Source: an uncultured Alphaproteobacteria bacterium
Lineage (GTDB): Bacteria; Pseudomonadota; Alphaproteobacteria; Bin95
Length of the DNA stretch: 64,000 nucleotides
Assembly (NCBI GenBank): GCA_963974445.1
Contig: CAXBDI010000001.1
Coordinates: 3,566-67,565 of the forward strand
Reading direction: 5' to 3'
Positions within the stretch are counted from its first letter, which is position 1; the number at the start of each line of letters is the position of its first letter. This document shows positions 9,633 through 16,238 of this stretch, one piece after another. The position numbers and the translations under genes are program-made. The notes beneath the pieces were generated by a model. That model did no database searches. It had not been told where the DNA came from and saw only the letters and a program-made list of their open reading frames with translations.

Positions 9633-10181
9633 ATGAGCATTTCAGTCTTGGGACTATCCGGCAGCTTGCGCGCTGCCTCGTTCAACACCGCTGCCTTGCG
9701 GGCTGCGCAATCGCTGGCGCCGGAGGGCATGACCATTGAGATCGCCGACATTAGCGGCGTGCCGCTCTACAATGAAGAGGTTTACCAGCAGGGCTTCCCC
9801 GCTGCCGTGGAGGCGCTCCGCGAGAAAATCCGCGCGGCCGACGCTCTGCTGATCGCGACGCCGGAGTACAACTACTCGATCAGCGGCGTGATGAAAAACG
9901 CCATCGACTGGGCATCGCGGCCGCCATCGCAGCCGTTCGACGGCAAGCTCGTCGGCATCATCGGCGCGAGCGCCGGCCGGTTCGGCACCGCACGGGCACA
10001 GTACCACCTGCGGCAGGTGTTTGTGTTCCTGAACGGTCAGGTGTTGAACAGGCCGGAGGTGATGATCAGCAGTGCTGGCAATGCCTTCGACTCTGAAGGC
10101 AAGCTGAAGGACGAGTTCGCCACCAAAGGCATCGAAGACATGCTGGGCGCCATCGCCAAGGCCGTCGAAGCCCGGCGCTAA
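9633..10181 (+). CDS. NAD(P)H-dependent FMN reductase (flavodoxin-like fold)
   Basis: 182 aa; LGLSGSLR…N, …PEYNYSISGVMKNAIDW…; family signature. Confidence 0.8.
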   Translation: MSISVLGLSGSLRAASFNTAALRAAQSLAPEGMTIEIADISGVPLYNEEVYQQGFPAAVEALREKIRAADALLIATPEYNYSISGVMKNAIDWASRPPSQPFDGKLVGIIGASAGRFGTARAQYHLRQVFVFLNGQVLNRPEVMISSAGNAFDSEGKLKDEFATKGIEDMLGAIAKAVEARR

Positions 10182-11026
10182 ATCTGCGCCAACAACAGGC
10201 TGGCGGCGGACACTTGGCCGGTTCCGCCGTTGGCTATGTTGGTCAGCAGCGCCAATGCGCCGCCCGCCGCACCGGCATCGACCGCTGTGCCGCCGCTGCT
10301 TTGAGACAACGCCAGGAAGCGGCGGATCAGTGTTTCAGTGTTGTCAGGGTCCGCGAACGCCGCCGGGGAGCCGGTTCCGCCGAACAGGGTGCGCGTCCGT
10401 TCGCGCAGGATATCGCGCTGCCGGTCGATATCCAACAGCGCGAAGGAATCAGGCAATCCGTAGGCTCCTTCCACCACCCGGCGCAGCGGCAGTTCGCCCA
10501 TCACCTGGAACCAGCCTGCATTCTCGACCGCACCGCCGGAGGCGACCCCGCCGATTCGCCGTTCGAAATTGAGCGCAAGACGTAGCGTGTTGTCGGAGGC
10601 GCCGACGGCTTCCTCCAGCGTTTGTCGCAGGAATGCCGCTTCGATCTCGCTTTTGAACTTGGTAAGAACGATACGGCTGCCGCCGATATTGCCGAAACCC
10701 ACCCCCTTCGCCAGCGCTTGAAACTGCGGATTGCGCAGCCGATTGGCGAACGACGCGGGGTCGTCGGTGCCTTGCTCTATGATGCGCTGTAGCAGGGCGG
10801 TCTTGCCGATCTCGCTTTGCAGGCCATAGGCGGTGAGCACGACCTTGGTCAGGCGATAGTCTTTCAGCAATGCCTCGGGTGAGGTCGCCTTGCTGATGTT
10901 ATCGCGAAAATATTGCAAGTCGCGCATCACTTGCGGCGAGGTGGCAATCAGATTGAGGTTGTCCTCCATACGGCGTTGCAGGAACGAAAAGCCCTGCACG
11001 CCACCGAACGGTACAGAGACTATCAT
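10178..11026 (-). CDS. DUF1217-family flagellar-associated protein
   Basis: ORF 10178..11125; ATG 11026 (MIVSVPFGG…) overlaps flbT stop (ATGA); sequence pattern and position next to flbT/flaF typical of DUF1217 genes in alphaproteobacterial flagellar clusters. Confidence 0.5.
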   Translation of the reverse strand: MIVSVPFGGVQGFSFLQRRMEDNLNLIATSPQVMRDLQYFRDNISKATSPEALLKDYRLTKVVLTAYGLQSEIGKTALLQRIIEQGTDDPASFANRLRNPQFQALAKGVGFGNIGGSRIVLTKFKSEIEAAFLRQTLEEAVGASDNTLRLALNFERRIGGVASGGAVENAGWFQVMGELPLRRVVEGAYGLPDSFALLDIDRQRDILRERTRTLFGGTGSPAAFADPDNTETLIRRFLALSQSSGGTAVDAGAAGGALALLTNIANGGTGQVSAASLLLAQI

Positions 11027-11472
11027 GTCGGCTGCGCCGGTTGGGGTTCGCGCGCGGCAGCCTTCGCGCCGGACGCCGGCTGGCGCAGCAGCAAATCTTC
11101 GTATGGCAAAAGCTTGCGCATGCATTGCAGCGCGCGGTAGAAATTGCCTGCCGTCGCGGCCGATAGCGCCTCCTCCGTCAATTGGCGGCCGTCTCGGTTG
11201 GTGAACACCTGCTGCAAGGCCCGCACCCCTTGGCCGAATTCGCGCAGGGCGTCTTCGTCGGTCACTTCACCGGCGACGGCCAGTTGCGCAATGTAGCAGA
11301 CCTGCTTGGTCGGCGTATTCACCTCCTGCGGATGGATCGCATCGCGCAGGCGCAGGATTTTGGTGTTGGGGGTTTTGATCCGCAGCTCGATCTTGCTCTG
11401 CCCGTTCTGAACGACGGCGCCATTGATCAAAACTTGCTCGTTAGGGCCCAATTTCAGTCGCAGACCGGTCAT
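11023..11472 (-). CDS. flbT: Flagellin synthesis regulator FlbT
   Basis: 149 aa; MTGLRLKLGPNEQVLINGAVVQNG…RIKTPNT…ILRLRDAIHP matches FlbT family; paired with flaF. Confidence 0.8.
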   Translation of the reverse strand: MTGLRLKLGPNEQVLINGAVVQNGQSKIELRIKTPNTKILRLRDAIHPQEVNTPTKQVCYIAQLAVAGEVTDEDALREFGQGVRALQQVFTNRDGRQLTEEALSAATAGNFYRALQCMRKLLPYEDLLLRQPASGAKAAAREPQPAQPT

Positions 11473-11876
11473 GGCAGGGTGTTTCCTGGCGGCACCTCGG
11501 TCGGATGCGGCTGGATGCCACGCAAACCGTCCATAACGGCGCGGTTGACATCGACAATCGGCTGAACGCTGGCATGGCCGCGCAGCACTTTGGCGGCGTG
11601 CTGGCGCACGAACGCCGCCAGGGACAGCAGCCCGGCGCGCAATTCGGGCGATAGTGCGTTGTCGTCGTTGACGACGTCGCCGGTGATCGCATCCCAGAGG
11701 CGGCGGTTGTCGTGCAGTGCCTGCACCAGATCGTTGAATCCGGCTTTGCCTTTGCGCTCGGCGGCCGAAAGTGCGGCGGATGTGCGGGCGAAGACCTGGT
11801 ATTCAATCCCTCGCTCGGTCGTCGCGCCTTTTTGCGCTTGACCGTAAGCGGCTATTGCTTGGGCGGAAGCATCCAT
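11469..11876 (-). CDS. flaF: Flagellar biosynthesis regulator FlaF
   Basis: ORF to 11912; start 11876 (MDASAQAIAAYGQ…) or 11912; …DNRRLWDAITGDVVNDDNALSPELRAGLLSLAAFV… is FlaF-like; stop overlaps flbT start. Confidence 0.75.
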   Translation of the reverse strand: MDASAQAIAAYGQAQKGATTERGIEYQVFARTSAALSAAERKGKAGFNDLVQALHDNRRLWDAITGDVVNDDNALSPELRAGLLSLAAFVRQHAAKVLRGHASVQPIVDVNRAVMDGLRGIQPHPTEVPPGNTLP

Positions 11877-11940
11877 CGTTTCGGAGCCCTCAGACATTCG
11901 TGGGGGTGACAAGCGGGCCTACTGGCCCTGGAGGGGCAGA

Positions 11941-11981
11941 AATGGAGTGGCGGGCGGGCGGGCCGAAGCTATGGCCTGCCC
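11941..11981 (-). terminator. Putative hairpin terminator downstream of flagellin gene
   Basis: GGGCGGGC…GCCCGCCC 8-bp GC stem just 3' of the flagellin stop on the minus strand; no clean U-tract, so weak call. Confidence 0.3.
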
Positions 11982-11998
11982 GCCCAACCAACGTTCGC

Positions 11999-13213
11999 CT
12001 AGCGGAACAGCGCCAGGATGTTCTGCGGCGCCTGGTTGGCGATGGAGAACGACTGGATGCCCAACTGCTGCTGCACCTGCAGCGACTGCAGCCGAGCCGA
12101 CGCTTCCTGAAGGTCGGCATCGACCAGCGCGCCGATACCGTTGTTCAGGTTGGCGATCAGCGAGGTGACGAAGTCGTTCTGGATTTCCAGACGGCTCTCG
12201 CCCTGGCCGAACACGGCGGCTGCATCGACGGCGGTGTTGATCAGCCCCTCGATATCGGTTAGCGCCGTATTGGCACCAGCCTCGGTCGAAACGTCGATCG
12301 AACTGAGCCCACCCAGACCGCCGCCGGCCGTGCCGCCGGATGTGCCGGTTTCGGCCAGCAAGGTAACGGCGTTGGTGGCATTGTTGTTGGTGAAGGTAAT
12401 GACGGCCGAATCGGTTGTCACGTCAGCGGCAGGCGCCAGCGTGAACGCGAAATCGGTGATGCCGAGGCCATCGAGTTGCGTCTGCAACTGTGTGGCGACG
12501 GTATTGATCGTGTCGCCATCGCGGGCGACGTAGGCCACGGAATACGCTGTAGCGTTGTAGGTAAAGCCGACCTGGAACCCGTCGCCTTCATCGACCGCGG
12601 AAACGCTGCCGTCGAGGGTGATAGTCTGCGTGCCGCCAGCCGCCGCGACGCCTGTGCCGCCGACAGCGGTGATGGCGGGATCGGCGCCGGTGCCCAGCGC
12701 CTGAACCGATGTCTGCAGGTCCTGTTTGGCGACTGAAATTTTGTTGGCGGTGACCGAACCATCCGCGGCGCGGTCGAGTGACGCCAGGACATCGACCTCG
12801 CCGCCGCCCTTGATCAGGTTCAGACCGTTGAACTGGGCTGCGTTGACGATGGAGACGATTTGGTTGCGGAGTTGCGCGATGTCGTCCTGAATGACAGAAC
12901 GATCGACGTTGTCTTCCTGTGACTTGACGATCCGGCCTTTGATGTCGACCAGCAGATCGGATATGGCCTCGGTCGCGCTGCGGGCCACGGCGACCGTGGA
13001 GGAGCCGAGCGCCAGGGTCTCGCTGATGGCGCGGAAGCCCGAAACGTCGGACTTCATGATCGTGGTGATGGAGAACACCGCGGCGTCGTCCTTGGCCGTC
13101 GCGACTTTCTTACCGGTGGAGATCTGATCCTGGACCTGGCCCAGGTTTTTGTTGATGCTGCGCAACGTCTGCAGGGCAGTCGTTGCAGCAGTGTTAGTCA
13201 ATACGCTAGCCAT
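11999..13213 (-). CDS. Flagellin
   Basis: 404 aa; conserved N-terminal (MASVLTNTAATTALQTLRSINKNLGQVQDQISTGKKV) and C-terminal (…LQSLQVQQQLGIQSFSIANQAPQNILALFR) flagellin domains with variable central region. Confidence 0.9.
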   Translation of the reverse strand: MASVLTNTAATTALQTLRSINKNLGQVQDQISTGKKVATAKDDAAVFSITTIMKSDVSGFRAISETLALGSSTVAVARSATEAISDLLVDIKGRIVKSQEDNVDRSVIQDDIAQLRNQIVSIVNAAQFNGLNLIKGGGEVDVLASLDRAADGSVTANKISVAKQDLQTSVQALGTGADPAITAVGGTGVAAAGGTQTITLDGSVSAVDEGDGFQVGFTYNATAYSVAYVARDGDTINTVATQLQTQLDGLGITDFAFTLAPAADVTTDSAVITFTNNNATNAVTLLAETGTSGGTAGGGLGGLSSIDVSTEAGANTALTDIEGLINTAVDAAAVFGQGESRLEIQNDFVTSLIANLNNGIGALVDADLQEASARLQSLQVQQQLGIQSFSIANQAPQNILALFR

Positions 13214-13239
13214 TTTCGTGTTTCCTTTGCGGGTCAGGA

Positions 13240-13318
13240 GCGTTCGCCCCTTCGGAAGGTTGCGAGGGGGCGTTCGCCCCTTCGGAAGGTTGCAAGGGGC
13301 ATTCGCCCCTTCCGGGGA
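13240..13318. repeat. 30-bp tandem repeat (2.6 copies) in flagellin upstream leader region
   Basis: GCGTTCGCCCCTTCGGAAGGTTGCGAGGGG / GCGTTCGCCCCTTCGGAAGGTTGCAAGGGG / CATTCGCCCCTTCCGGGGA; junctions form GGGGCGttCGCCCC palindromes. Confidence 0.8.
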
Positions 13319-13468
13319 TTGCCGACGTTGTTCTTACGTCGGCGGCAAGCAAAGGGTGGGGTGAGGTGTCGCCTCACATCAGGGGCCTTTGCACGTCAGC
13401 AGCAAAGACAAACCCTGCTGCCGCGTGCGCCTTCTGGCGCGGACATCTCAGAGCCGCCAAAGGCCCGG

Positions 13469-13496
13469 CTATCGGGCGGTAAGCGGATCGGATTTG
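13469..13496 (-). promoter_or_regulatory. Candidate sigma-28-like promoter for flagellin (CAAA-N15-GCCCGATAG on minus strand)
   Basis: Reverse complement reads CAAA tccgatccgcttacc GCCCGATAG, close to TAAA-N15-GCCGATAA; implies a ~245-nt leader containing the tandem repeats. Confidence 0.3.
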
Positions 13497-13571
13497 CAGG
13501 ACAGTACAGGTGGCGGCCTAATAACAGATGAAAACGGCTATCGGGAATTGCAGATGTTTTCTGCAAGATAT

Positions 13572-13973
13572 TCAGGCAAGCCGGTTGTAGTGACCTTCGC
13601 CGGCATCGATTGCCTTCGGCTTGCCGGTATCGCCGGATTGCTGGGCCCCCGGATAGGTTTCCGAGACCTCACGAATGGCGCTGGAGATCAGGCGGGCGCC
13701 GCGTAGCGCACCACGCAACACCATCTCGTTCCGCGCGGCGGCGTCAAGCATGCGCTCGAAGCCATCGCGCAGTTGCTGGCGGTCGTCCGCGCTGGCCGCG
13801 TGGGCCAGGTGACCGGCGGCCGGCGTGGCGGCCAACAGGCGATCGATCACGGCGGATTTGCGGTCGGGATCGACAGTGCCATCGGCCTCGCCGGCGAGGA
13901 TCGCTTCCGTCTCGCGCGTCAGCCGCGATTCCGTTTCGGCCAGCAGGCGCAGCAGGTCGTTCAGGCTAGCCAT
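13572..13973 (-). CDS. Hypothetical protein in flagellar cluster (133 aa)
   Basis: In-frame ATG 13973 inside ORF 13572..14210 (MASLNDLLRLLAETESRL…); ATG overlaps stop of FlgJ-like gene (ATGGCTAG); upstream 79 codons of the track ORF are Arg-rich and implausible. Confidence 0.45.
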   Translation of the reverse strand: MASLNDLLRLLAETESRLTRETEAILAGEADGTVDPDRKSAVIDRLLAATPAAGHLAHAASADDRQQLRDGFERMLDAAARNEMVLRGALRGARLISSAIREVSETYPGAQQSGDTGKPKAIDAGEGHYNRLA

Positions 13974-14286
13974 GCGGGTTCTCCCCGGCGGCGGCGCGTA
14001 CGATTGCTTCGGCGAGGCCGAGGCTGCCGGTTTCGGCGATTTTTTCGGCATAGGCGCGCGACAGGAACGAGGAGAACGCCGATTCCCCTTCGCCGCCGCC
14101 AAACCCGTCCGGCACTTTCCCAAGCCCCGCCTGCTGCAGCATCTCCGCGACGAACATCGCCTCGAACGCCTGTGCCGCCCGGCGGATGCCGGCGCGGTCA
14201 TCGGCGCCAACCGCGCTCCCAGTCTTCGCCGCGGCGCCTGAGGTGGGAAGCGGGTGCGGTTGATGCGGACTCAGTCCAATCGCCAT
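13966..14286 (-). CDS. Rod-binding protein (FlgJ N-terminal domain-like)
   Basis: 106 aa; …AAQAFEAMFVAEMLQQAG… matches the FlgJ N-terminal rod-binding domain. Confidence 0.65.
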   Translation of the reverse strand: MAIGLSPHQPHPLPTSGAAAKTGSAVGADDRAGIRRAAQAFEAMFVAEMLQQAGLGKVPDGFGGGEGESAFSSFLSRAYAEKIAETGSLGLAEAIVRAAAGENPHG

Positions 14287-14462: not shown

Positions 14463-16238
14463 TTGCTATGCCGTATAGCAGGAAGACTTTTCCTCTTGGC
14501 CACAGAAATACCATCGATTGCGCCTGCCAAATCCGCTGTCCCCGCCGGCGCGCCCGCGCCGGCGAAGGGCGTCAGCGCCAATCCGGCCTCGAGGTTCGGT
14601 CAATTGCTGGCCGATGGCGAGGCGGAGGATGGCCGCCGGCCCGTGCCGCCTTCGGCTAAACCCGATGCGCCCCTTACCGATACCCTGAAGAACGAGCCGC
14701 CGGGCACCGCACCGGTGCAGCCGCCAGCCAATGACATCGCCGTCGAGAACCCGGACCTTGAAGACTCCGACAGTGAGGTCGGCTTGCCAGCGGTTGGTGG
14801 CGACAGCCGCACGCCGCCAAATGTGCAGGTGCCGCTGGCCGGGGCCGATGTTCCTGTCCTCGGGGTTCCTGTCCTCGGGGCGGGCTCTGCGCAGGGTGCT
14901 GAGCCTGTAGGGCGGCGGGTTGAGGCGCCAGCCGCCCCACCACTGCCCGATCAGCCACCGCAACCGGAGCCTCTGGCACGCCAGAACGGGCAACCGGAAA
15001 CAATGCCCATCGACCCGGCGCTCGCCAGCGATGGCACTGAGCCTTCAAATTCCATATCTCCAGTATCTGACCACTCTGAGCGGGCCAGCTCCGTATCGGC
15101 GCAAAACGCTGCCGCCGTCAACGCAAGCACGCCTCCTGCGTCCGCAGATACCGCGACCGAGCCGCCTCGCCAACCACAAACATCCGAGCCTTCGGTCGGG
15201 CTGAGGACGGTGTCGCCTTTGCCCGGCAATGCTGAAGTCGTCCAGGAGACTGCCGCGAAGCCGCTGGGCGTACCGGTGCGAACTGAGCCGCCGCCACGTC
15301 AGCCTGGTCAAGGTAATGGGCAATCGATCAATGCGGCATTGCCGCCGCTGGCCCTACCGCTTGAGCCGGACGCCGCCCGGCCCGTGTCGGCGTCGGTCCG
15401 CCCAGATCCGGCCTCGGCGACCCTTGCGCCGCAAGCGCCTGCGCCCATCTTTACGCGCCCGGTCGAGCGGTCGCATGTGGGCCAGGCGGTTCTCGCCGGC
15501 CTTGCCGTCAACGTCGTTGAGCCAAACCGCACGGCAAAGCCGGACCGGACCGCCGGCAGGCTACCGGAGCTCAACTCAATCCGATTTGAAGTGCCGACAC
15601 CCACGCCGCAATCGACGCCATCGCCGGCCGTGCAGGCCCCAGTATCGGCCTTCACGGGCGATCCGTCAGTGTTGACCTTAACGCCAGGTCCGGTTCCGCG
15701 CGTCACCGATGGTGGTCTGCCCGCCGACGTCCTGGAAGGCGGGCGGCCTCTTCCCGAGGCTAGAGACAGCAGCCGCTCTGCGACGGTGGCCGGTCCGCAA
15801 AGCGTTCGCGATGTCCCGCTGTCGATTGCCAGGGCCGCTCTCGATGGCGCTACTGACCTGACGCTCAGGCTAAGGCCGCCGGAACTGGGATATCTGACGA
15901 TCCGCATTCACTTCGCCAATGGGCAGATCCAAGTGGATGTCAACGCCGATCGCCCAGAAACTCTGTATTTGCTGCAACGGGAGGCCGATGGCTTTGAGCG
16001 GGCATTGCGTCATGCCGGCCTCGACCTGCGCGATGGCGGCCTGCAATTCGGCTCGAATGGTGACACTGCCCGGCATCGTACCGGTGCGTCGGGCGCCTGG
16101 ACCGGCACAGCCCGCGATGGCGGCGGCGAGGCGGCGGAAGGCGACAAATACACGCCGGGCGATGCCAAAACGGCGGTGGCGCAACCGCAGTATCGGCCGG
16201 GCGGCGGGCCGCTCGGTGCGCTCGATATCCGGCTATAA
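14463..16238 (+). CDS. fliK: Flagellar hook-length control protein FliK (Pro/Ala-rich)
   Basis: 591-aa Pro/Ala-rich ORF; C-terminal Flg_hook-like segment …LRLRPPELGYLTIRIHFANGQIQVDVNADRPETLYLLQREADGFERALRHAGLDL…; first codon TTG, true start uncertain (no in-frame ATG for >100 codons). Confidence 0.65.
   Translation: MLCRIAGRLFLLATEIPSIAPAKSAVPAGAPAPAKGVSANPASRFGQLLADGEAEDGRRPVPPSAKPDAPLTDTLKNEPPGTAPVQPPANDIAVENPDLEDSDSEVGLPAVGGDSRTPPNVQVPLAGADVPVLGVPVLGAGSAQGAEPVGRRVEAPAAPPLPDQPPQPEPLARQNGQPETMPIDPALASDGTEPSNSISPVSDHSERASSVSAQNAAAVNASTPPASADTATEPPRQPQTSEPSVGLRTVSPLPGNAEVVQETAAKPLGVPVRTEPPPRQPGQGNGQSINAALPPLALPLEPDAARPVSASVRPDPASATLAPQAPAPIFTRPVERSHVGQAVLAGLAVNVVEPNRTAKPDRTAGRLPELNSIRFEVPTPTPQSTPSPAVQAPVSAFTGDPSVLTLTPGPVPRVTDGGLPADVLEGGRPLPEARDSSRSATVAGPQSVRDVPLSIARAALDGATDLTLRLRPPELGYLTIRIHFANGQIQVDVNADRPETLYLLQREADGFERALRHAGLDLRDGGLQFGSNGDTARHRTGASGAWTGTARDGGGEAAEGDKYTPGDAKTAVAQPQYRPGGGPLGALDIRL

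Follow-up and report, generated by a model that had tools for sequence, protein, structure and literature searches.

The flagellin gene module and its predicted promoter

The window analysed here, a stretch of 64 kb, carries on its minus strand a DUF1217-FlbT-FlaF-flagellin module transcribed in the order flagellin, flaF, flbT and DUF1217. The flagellin gene (11999-13213; 404 aa; ATG start codon at 13213-13211) encodes the Pfam Flagellin_N and Flagellin_C domains and is the only one of its kind in the window, where a tblastn search returned no second flagellin. It is followed by flaF (11469-11876; 135 aa; Pfam FlaF, E between about 6e-32 and 8e-32), called with the same length in L001, another assembly of the same species, then by flbT (11023-11472; 149 aa; Pfam FlbT, E 4e-33), which shares the overlapping start and stop codons ATGA with the end of flaF, and by the DUF1217 gene (10178-11026; 282 aa; Pfam DUF1217, E 4e-38; limits as called in L001), whose ATG overlaps the flbT stop codon. 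The AF2 model of FlbT (pLDDT 84) shows five beta strands followed by a four-helix bundle. The module has the same synteny in all relatives examined. The Pfam assignments confirm the annotation given in a preliminary description of this DNA, and the minus-strand order bears out its placement of flaF and flbT downstream of flagellin. The "~350-bp leader" of that description corresponds to the intergenic region upstream of flagellin (13214-13571, minus strand; 358 nt); the 5'UTR predicted below is about 281 nt long.

A CtrA-box-like element, TTCATCTGTTATTAG (TTCA-N7-TTAG; 13518-13532, minus strand), is the only match in the window and is conserved in all ten leaders of the clade, while low-GC relatives carry TTAA-N7-TTAG or TTAA-N7-TTAT in its place. 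The CtrA consensus is TTAA-N7-TTAA near -35 (PMC6180460), with which the window box agrees at six of the eight specified bases. Alignment A4 revealed an invariant TA downstream (13494-13506 spans this dinucleotide, with its A at 13505, and the predicted start at 13495/13494, both A); counted from the box, the invariant A comes after 13 nt, and position 23/24 is a purine. In R. sphaeroides the distance from the CtrA site to the transcription start is 23-24 nt and the A at -11 is invariant, and in P. inhibens no gene depends more strongly on CtrA than fliC. By analogy, we infer a CtrA-type promoter with a start near 13494, from which a 5'UTR of about 281 nt, including the repeats, would be transcribed. 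A sigma-28-type promoter was also considered but set aside: two occurrences of CCCGATAGCCG (13545-13535 and 13476-13466) are similar to the GCCGATAA -10 consensus, but neither is conserved in relatives. A scan of 11800-14000 for sigma-70 sites found none.

Architecture of the flagellin leader

The predicted 5'UTR (13214-13494, minus strand) contains five hairpins (P1-P5) besides the repeat array, and its minimum free energy has a z-score of -8.6. RNAalifold detected compensatory change at 11 base pairs of the leader hairpins. Across the ten related sequences of this small covariation set, from which the tested structure was itself derived, 94.4% of alignment cells were paired against 33-51% in controls with the pairing partners slid, with a covariation score of 0.286 against at most 0.086 in those controls. 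Structure prediction, which the preliminary description had proposed as a check, returned a structured leader. Two results bear on its suggestion that the repeats belong to the mRNA and do not lie upstream of the transcription start: since the hairpins upstream of the array show compensatory changes and the conserved CtrA-type box predicts a start at about 13494, a start downstream of the repeats is unlikely.

From the 5' end, P1 (13445-13493) is closed by the helix AUCCGA/UCUGAGAU, with two pairs changed on both sides and 95% paired, and has a variable top with an insertion specific to the window. P2 (13427-13440), GCGCC-AGAA-GGCGC with a CAGAAG loop, is invariant in the clade, and of 30 flagellin leaders from several orders 27 have a hairpin with an AGRA loop, with 7.9 expected. 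P3 (13395-13422; GGCAGCAG...CUGCUGAC) consists of two helices in which four pairs have changed on both sides. P4 (13361-13377; GUGAGG-CGACA-CCUCAC) was recognized by folding, and relatives carry different self-complementary sequences at its position. P5 (13321-13343; GCCGACGU-AAGAACA-ACGUCGGC) is an inverted repeat with five of seven pairs changed on both sides.

Interspersed with the hairpins are three mutually complementary 7-mers. A GCAAAGG box at 13386-13392, identical to the one at the ribosome-binding site, is a candidate anti-anti-SD, and a CCUUUGC box at 13349-13355, complementary to both, is a candidate anti-SD. The ribosome-binding site itself (AAGGA, 13227-13223) lies in the block GCAAAGGAA (13222-13230), invariant in all ten leaders. 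The upstream GCAAAGG box is conserved in the nine long leaders, and RNAalifold pairs it with CCUUUGC. Because the three 7-mers never vary, their pairing is beyond the reach of covariation, and the CCUUUGC match, taken in one sequence alone, is marginal (p about 0.05-0.1). The 63% group (L027 and L036-L038) carries neither the CCUUUGC box nor the upstream GCAAAGG box. Pairing with the anti-SD could not be extended to other orders, where AGGUGA/UCACCU and GCGAAGG/CCUUC had seemed by eye to covary: beyond the clade, shuffling gave no significant result, and the pairing is a hypothesis for the clade only. A conserved upstream ORF was likewise discarded, as the ATG of the GAGAUGCC block, which opens 16 codons in the window, is ACG or ACA in L011, L012 and L030. 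No Rfam family matched the leader, the sole hit being engA at chance level (E 0.3, with 23 bits where the gathering score is 46), and a search of nine related loci gave no matches. Databases offer no description of this long, conserved and folded leader, which probably contributes to the control of flagellin translation.

The tandem array and its hairpins

Tandem Repeats Finder delimited an array of 2.6 copies of a 30-nt unit at 13236-13312 on the minus strand (89% matches, score 126), and a separate repeat search placed the copies at 13237-13266, 13267-13296 and 13296-13325. The unit length and copy number agree with those first noted, with slightly different limits (13240-13318 in the preliminary description). 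The 2.6 units yield three GGGGCGAAYGCYCC hairpins, each predicted to fold into a 5-bp stem with a GAAY tetraloop: copy 1, GGGGCGAAUGCCCC (GGGGC-GAAU-GCCCC; 13296-13309), copy 2, GGGGCGAACGCCCC (GGGGC-GAAC-GCCCC; 13267-13280), and copy 3, GGGGCGAACGCUCC (GGGGC-GAAC-GCUCC, with a G.U pair; 13237-13250), all on the minus strand. Copy 3 is the nearest to the ribosome-binding site, ending 9 nt before AAGGA and 23 nt before the ATG at 13213. The repeats lie in the leader directly before the ribosome-binding site, in keeping with the earlier placement of the hairpins right in front of the start codon. The copies have diverged by 10-30%, copies 2 and 3 differing at three of 30 positions, with the hairpin retained in each. 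Within the 64-kb window the 23-nt core of the repeat occurs only at the array (0.00 matches expected from shuffles), and no further copies of the unit were found there even when 2-3 mismatches were allowed.

In 12 of the 13 leaders of a family-level group, the AUG is preceded at 31-37 nt by a hairpin with a GC-rich stem and a GAAY loop, and copy 3 occupies the position of the relatives' single hairpin. The stems include GGGGC/GCCCC, GGAGC/GCUCC, GGGC/GCCC, CGGCAU/GUGCCG and GCGGCG/CGCCGC; all fold, the loop is always GAAY, and the stem sequence differs between species with pairing preserved. This conservation of position and loop, with stems that change and yet pair, substantiates the earlier view of the repeated unit as a structured element of the leader. 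Copy 3 and the hairpins of L029 and L030 contain G.U pairs, which would be A-C mismatches on the opposite strand, indicating that the hairpin acts as sense-strand RNA. L029 is a locus of the cultured relative Futiania mangrovi (GCA_024158125.1); its homologous hairpin has a GAAC loop, and it also carries a P2-like hairpin and a TTCA-N7-TTAG box.

A role in DNA, as the operator of some DNA-binding protein or as a dispersed repeat of REP or MITE type that inserted here, is suggested by the arms, which form a 6+6 inverted repeat (the near-palindrome GGGGCG-AA-CGCCCC), and by the location of the array between promoter and gene. It is extremely improbable given that the compensatory and G.U substitutions keep pairing only in the sense-strand RNA, that species agree in where the hairpin sits relative to the AUG, and that some 185-260 nt separate the array from the predicted promoter upstream of it; nor does the 64-kb window hold another copy, let alone the many dispersed copies of a REP or MITE. 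We give almost no credence to the hairpins being transcription terminators or attenuators: they are GC-rich stem-loops ahead of a coding region, but no copy is followed by a U tract (UUGCAA, CUCGCA and UGACCC come next), and a minus-strand terminator scan of 13214-13571 found none.

Copy number proved variable. The window assembly has three hairpin copies, whereas L001 and L002, other assemblies of the same species with an identical flagellin, have two, being one unit shorter; they otherwise differ from the window by five mismatches in about 7.2 kb (L001) and four in about 4.3 kb (L002). Single copies occur in L003, L007, L008, L012, L030, L033, L027 and L036-L038, and L011 has none, though flaF, flbT and DUF1217 are present. 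A pattern scan of metagenomes returned five loci, one of them (L033) in the clade. Repetition is therefore neither conserved nor a designed property of the leader, copy number varying from 0 to 3 among close relatives, and the hairpin before the Shine-Dalgarno (pre-SD hairpin) cannot be essential, since L011 lacks any copy. As copies 2 and 3 differ at 3/30 positions and the genomes by only five mismatches in about 7.2 kb, the array is older than the strain split.

All the sequences are metagenome assemblies, those with the three-copy and two-copy alleles being built from short reads, and assemblers often err on tandem repeats whose unit is close to the k-mer length, so a single real allele whose 30-nt repeat was collapsed or expanded by the assemblers could account for the difference. 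This is very unlikely, considering that the array, at about 77 nt, is below typical read length, that the copies are distinguishable (three differences in 30 nt), that two records assembled separately, one of which was seen in three samples, show the two-copy form with a clean recombinant junction, and that copy number varies between species too.

Folding predictions for one to four copies left the alternative pairings at about 0.30 and about 0.67 and access to the ribosome-binding site at 0.52-0.53, so the extra copies are predicted to be neutral for that access. Three and two copies occur as a polymorphism between assemblies of one species, which would suit a contingency (phase-variable) repeat if copy number changed expression; folding predicts no change in access. 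Conversely, all three copies have retained hairpin-compatible sequence, perhaps a sign that their number is of consequence and that the extra copies are not dispensable.

Proposed role of the leader and comparison with known systems

The genes directly downstream of flagellin, flaF and flbT, make FlbT a candidate ligand. FlbT acts through the flagellin 5'UTR, and FlbT and FlaF govern post-transcriptional flagellin control in Caulobacter and Brucella, FlbT being reported as a repressor in the former and an activator in the latter. Reportedly, association of FlbT requires a loop in the transcript. The pre-SD hairpin is one candidate FlbT site, a reading weakened by L011, which has flbT without the hairpin; the CAGAAG-loop hairpin and the GCAAAGG boxes are candidates for FlbT/FlaF at least as good. 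Recognition of flagellin mRNA by FlbT is still listed as unresolved in a review (PMC4347634).

In its strongest form, this reading makes the array a multi-site operator in which each hairpin binds FlbT or an FlbT-flagellin complex, the three sites acting cooperatively for stronger repression and copy number being adaptive. The gene order and the action of FlbT on the 5'UTR in Caulobacter fit such an operator, as do a constant GAAY loop on varying stems, typical of a sequence-specific protein site, and a hairpin kept by all three copies despite their 10-30% divergence. We nevertheless regard it as doubtful: L011 retains flbT, flaF and DUF1217 without a hairpin, one copy suffices in relatives and a two-copy allele circulates in the same species, and the GAAY loop is confined to the family-level group whereas FlbT occurs across orders, where the shared element is instead the AGRA-loop hairpin (P2).

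The explanation that we favor, and hold to be somewhat more probable than all others together, is that the array amplifies a conserved cis-acting hairpin within a structured, CtrA-transcribed leader that serves post-transcriptional flagellin control. The 30-nt repeat would have arisen when, in this species alone, a single conserved cis element of the leader was amplified in tandem, namely a short GC-rich hairpin with a C(GAAY)G cap found in a family-level group of marine Alphaproteobacteria. The 5'UTR, which would be transcribed from the CtrA-type promoter, folds into a string of hairpins (P1-P5), as the covariation shows, and the three complementary 7-mers could switch the ribosome-binding site between occluded and free states. 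The array would have grown from one to three copies on the branch leading to the window species, the copies then diverging by 10-30% with each hairpin retained, and an exact 30-nt slippage deletion would have produced the two-copy allele of the other assemblies. The hairpin would act in RNA, within post-transcriptional flagellin control, and the extra copies would be dispensable or at most tune the level of expression.

A bolder and rather unlikely extension holds that the leader represents an undescribed riboregulator family of marine Alphaproteobacteria, in which CCUUUGC would alternate between the ribosome-binding site and the upstream decoy, an FlbT complex would set the balance through the YCAGRA (P2) and GAAY loops, and 0, 1, 2 or 3 copies would alter the strength of repression. 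If it is true, slippage would generate heritable variation in flagellin output between strains; should the extra copies prove neutral, the array is a slippage polymorphism of the ordinary sort, set in a leader of interest. The covariation-supported architecture provides a small set of invariant targets for mutation (the CAGAAG loop of P2, the GAAY hairpin and the three 7-mers), a YCAGRA-type loop hairpin recurs in flagellin leaders of several alphaproteobacterial orders, and the otherwise homologous leaders with 0, 1, 2 and 3 pre-SD hairpins form a natural allele series, a ready-made experiment.

Among described systems, the fljK 5'UTR of Caulobacter crescentus (with FlbT, FlaF and FljJ) resembles this locus in having flaF and flbT beside flagellin, control through the 5'UTR and structures near the ribosome-binding site. 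It differs in that flagellin genes are RpoN- and FlbD-dependent in Caulobacter while the window promoter looks CtrA-dependent, and in that the fljK leader is much shorter than the leader of about 281 nt described here, with its six or more hairpins and tandem array. No FljJ-type regulatory paralogue is visible in the window, which has one flagellin gene only. As counterparts of the fljK stem-loop, both the pre-SD GAAY hairpin and the P2 AGAA hairpin are conserved as candidates, with L011 keeping flbT in the absence of the former.

The fla1-type cluster of Rhodobacterales, fliC-flaF-flbT-CP1 (fla2 in R. sphaeroides), which is under CtrA control, shares the order flagellin-flaF-flbT plus one more conserved gene and, by prediction for the window, a CtrA-type promoter architecture with the box near -35, the A at -11 and the start 23-24 nt after the box. 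Its box is TTAA-N7-TTAA and that of the window TTCA-N7-TTAG. CP1 and DUF1217 occupy the same cluster position, the CP1 paper making no mention of DUF1217, and the papers on the fla1-type cluster do not describe a structured flagellin leader. The flg-Rhizobiales motif of Rfam (RF01736), a candidate cis-regulatory RNA that precedes flagellar genes of Alphaproteobacteria, matched neither the window at E ≤1 nor nine related loci at E ≤0.5.

A functional analogy with CsrA-FliW, acting on the hag and flaA leaders of Bacillus and Campylobacter, has already been drawn in the literature. The regulator here does not belong to the CsrA family by fold or sequence. In the CsrA-FliW system the flagellin leader has several sites for a repressor, including one at the ribosome-binding site, and repression is relieved upon flagellin secretion; the two GCAAAGG boxes of the window leader resemble this two-site arrangement.

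Gene module and predicted transcript start

The flagellin gene (11999-13213, minus strand, ATG at 13213) is the only one within the 64-kb window and was identified by Pfam together with flaF (11469-11876), flbT (11023-11472) and a DUF1217 protein gene (10178-11026), all on the minus strand. The last three overlap successively by 4 nt (ATGA), which suggests that they are translationally coupled. The flagellin stop codon is followed by a GC-rich hairpin (GGGCGGGCAGGCC...GGCCCGCCCGCCC; 11913-11998, minus strand), which has no clear U tract and may be a partial terminator between flagellin and flaF-flbT-DUF1217. Directly upstream of the leader, a 133-aa ORF (13572-13973, minus strand) had no Pfam match, and its synteny is conserved in all relatives; a faint FlgN hit in its counterpart at one comparison locus (L040) suggests that it may encode a FlgN-like chaperone. 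The gene of a Rod-binding-domain protein is also upstream of flagellin on the minus strand, and those of FliK and FlgD are divergent from the module. The FliK-like gene (14463-16238) contains a 15-nt perfect tandem repeat of 2.1 copies (GTTCCTGTCCTCGGG; 14850-14880, plus strand), which duplicates VPVLG within the proline-rich part of the encoded hook-length protein. The source organism is an uncultured marine alphaproteobacterium whose flagellin is found in identical form on a Tara Oceans scaffold; its closest relatives are MAGs (flagellin identity 70-76%) and its closest named organisms are Futiania mangrovi and Parvularculaceae (~55%).

The intergenic region 5' of the flagellin ATG spans 358 nt and includes the only TTMA-N7-TTAG site of the window, TTCATCTGTTATTAG (13532-13518), a box conserved in all ten distinct leaders of our alignment (A4). 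At the corresponding place, low-GC relatives have TTAA-N7-TTAG or TTAT, which we likened to the CtrA consensus TTAA-N7-TTAA (PMC6180460). Mapped starts of R. sphaeroides fla2 promoters follow the CtrA site by 23-24 nt and have an invariant A at -11; fliC is the most strongly CtrA-dependent gene of Phaeobacter. The window has an invariant A at 13505, 13 nt past the box, and A again at the 23rd and 24th positions past it (13495 and 13494). From the CtrA-like box, the R. sphaeroides spacing and the CtrA dependence of Phaeobacter fliC, we infer that transcription would start near 13494, giving a 5'UTR of ~281 nt in which the repeats would occupy roughly +185 to +258. This predicted start, together with covariation upstream of the repeats, makes a start downstream of them, the outcome named in the preliminary description as refuting its reading, appear unlikely. 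A conserved sigma-28-like promoter was considered and rejected, none being conserved. An exact 11-nt direct repeat, CCCGATAGCCG, resembling the sigma-28 -10 consensus GCCGATAA, occurs twice, 69 nt apart (13535-13545 and 13466-13476, minus strand), one copy just upstream of the CtrA-like box and the other within an insertion in the loop of P1 (the 5'-most of the predicted leader hairpins P1-P5) that sister species lack.

The hairpin array and its copy number

The tandem repeat with hairpins that the preliminary description had noticed ahead of the flagellin start was confirmed by TRF, which reported 2.6 copies of a 30-nt unit at 13236-13312 (89% matches); the core of the unit occurs nowhere else in the window (0.00 matches expected by chance), within which dispersed copies of the unit were not found. 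Written as mRNA, the array is CCGGAA-GGGGCGAAUGCCCC-UUGCAACCUUCCGAA-GGGGCGAACGCCCC-CUCGCAACCUUCCGAA-GGGGCGAACGCUCC-UGACCC-GCAAAGGAA-ACACGAAA-AUG, in which GGGGCGAAUGCCCC, GGGGCGAACGCCCC and GGGGCGAACGCUCC each form a hairpin of five base pairs capped by a GAAY tetraloop. On the plus strand, a mechanical ORF of 71 aa (13149-13364) runs antisense to the start of flagellin and contains the repeated peptide VRPFGRLRG/VRPFGRLQG; it was dismissed as a wrong-strand reading of the repeat and is not a gene.

The leaders of sister species contained no tandem repeat and had instead one hairpin in the corresponding position, just 5' of the ribosome-binding site (pre-SD hairpin). Its sequence was GGGGC-GAAY-GCCCC in L008 and L033, GGAGC-GAAC-GCUCC in L012, with a compensatory G-C to A-U change, and GGGC-YGAAC-GCCC in L003, L007 and L038, with similar forms in L027 and L030; it was absent from the leader of L011, a close relative of L012. 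At ~55% flagellin identity the stems differ and the loop core is the same, as in Futiania (CGGCA-UCGAACG-UGCCG), L028 (GCGGCG-UCGAAUG-CGCCGC) and the related hairpin of L039 (CGGCG-UCGAAUG-CGCCG). A GAAY-loop hairpin was found 31-37 nt 5' of the AUG in 12 of the 13 leaders of the group. The stems of copy 3, L029 and L030 include G.U pairs and so remain paired only in the sense-strand RNA. The pre-SD hairpin is an element of the RNA whose position is conserved. By eye, flagellin leaders of other orders also have a GC-rich hairpin just 5' of the ribosome-binding site, with A-rich loops (e.g. AAA, AAAAC, GAAAAAA).

Two other assemblies code for a flagellin identical to that of the window, from which they differ by 5 mismatches in ~7.2 kb and 4 in ~4.3 kb, respectively, and their leaders equal that of the window minus exactly one 30-nt unit. 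Copies 2 and 3 of the array differ at 3 of 30 positions; since duplication after the strains split would have given identical copies, the three-copy array probably predates the split, and a precise deletion by slippage, with its crossover inside GGGGCGAACGC, best accounts for the two-copy allele. Hairpin multiplicity is species-specific and polymorphic, and the tandem repeat is an amplification, with those same properties, of the conserved pre-SD hairpin. The earlier interpretation was supported as regards a structured leader element, conserved at the RNA level with its loop kept and its stems varying but paired, and not supported as regards the repetition, sister species being single-copy and the same-flagellin assemblies one unit shorter.

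A folded leader with a candidate anti-SD switch

The leader region is predicted to fold much more stably than shuffled versions of it (z-score -8.6), and in A4 variable hairpins are separated by invariant blocks, namely P2 (GCGCC-AGAA-GGCGC) with its flanks (13440-13427), GUGCAAAGGCC (13394-13384), CCUUUGC (13355-13349) and GCAAAGGAA with the ribosome-binding site (13230-13222), all on the minus strand. RNAalifold predicted P1, P2, P3 and P5 as well as pairing of GCAAAGG with CCUUUGC, and 11 of the base pairs persist despite substitutions in both partners. In the structure restricted to these helices, itself derived from the same small set of ten related sequences, there were 11 such pairs (1-5 when the 3' partners were slid by 1-3 columns), standard pairs filled 94.4% of cells (33-51% when slid) and the covariation score was 0.286 (at most 0.086 when slid). 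Rfam had no family match in the window or in nine related loci, the leader contained no terminator, and a conserved upstream ORF was rejected, none being conserved. Judged from these comparisons, the pre-SD hairpin lies in a putative flagellin leader of the FlbT/FlaF type that is supported by covariation and had not been described before.

CCUUUGC is complementary to two GCAAAGG boxes, one upstream and one at the ribosome-binding site, and in individual folds either box could be its partner at comparable probability. For the box at the ribosome-binding site the pairing probability was 0.31 in the window, 0.89 in L003 and 0.01 in L030; for the upstream box it was 0.67, 0.09 and 0.99, respectively. 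This arrangement looks like a switch between anti-SD and anti-anti-SD pairing, although a 7-nt complement in a single sequence is only marginally improbable and the pairing is beyond a covariation test because the boxes never vary. The leaders of the group at 63% flagellin identity (L027 2326-2500; L036-L038) have lost one whole block of ~100 nt that comprises the upstream GCAAAGG box, P4, CCUUUGC and P5; retained are the promoter box, hairpins P1-P3, the ribosome-binding site and the pre-SD hairpin. Joint loss of both partner boxes is a prediction of the switch model, not proof of it. The leader of this group is a natural 'switch-less' version.

Of 30 flagellin leaders, which come from several orders and are not independent sequences, 27 contain a hairpin with AGRA in its loop, as in P2 and usually as YCAGRA; dinucleotide shuffles give an expectation of 7.9. 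The YCAGRA-type hairpin is a candidate order-spanning recognition element. Across several alphaproteobacterial orders (L013-L040), small hairpins of this type lie 75-225 nt 5' of the flagellin AUG, for example UGUCAGAAUGACA, GGCAAGAAUGCC, GCUCAGGAGAGC and AUCAGGAUGAU.

A possible role in post-transcriptional control, and FlbT

Each unit folds locally, so that going from 1 to 4 copies alters neither the predicted folding nor the predicted access to the ribosome-binding site. We infer a role for the pre-SD hairpin in controlling flagellin after transcription, with any extra copies being dispensable or having no more than a modulating effect. Possibly, FlbT binds each hairpin as an operator, in keeping with the conserved GAAY loop and the retention of the hairpin in all three copies; L011, however, has flbT and flaF yet no pre-SD hairpin, and it is the P2-type loop, not the GAAY loop, that has an order-wide distribution. 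What makes the locus interesting is chiefly how the leader is built and the natural series of copy numbers, rather than the repeat itself. A link of FlbT to CsrA was sought and none was established. In known systems, FlbT binds the fljK 5'UTR and acts jointly with the flagellin FljJ, FlaF is a flagellin secretion chaperone, and in Brucella FlbT has been reported as an activator.
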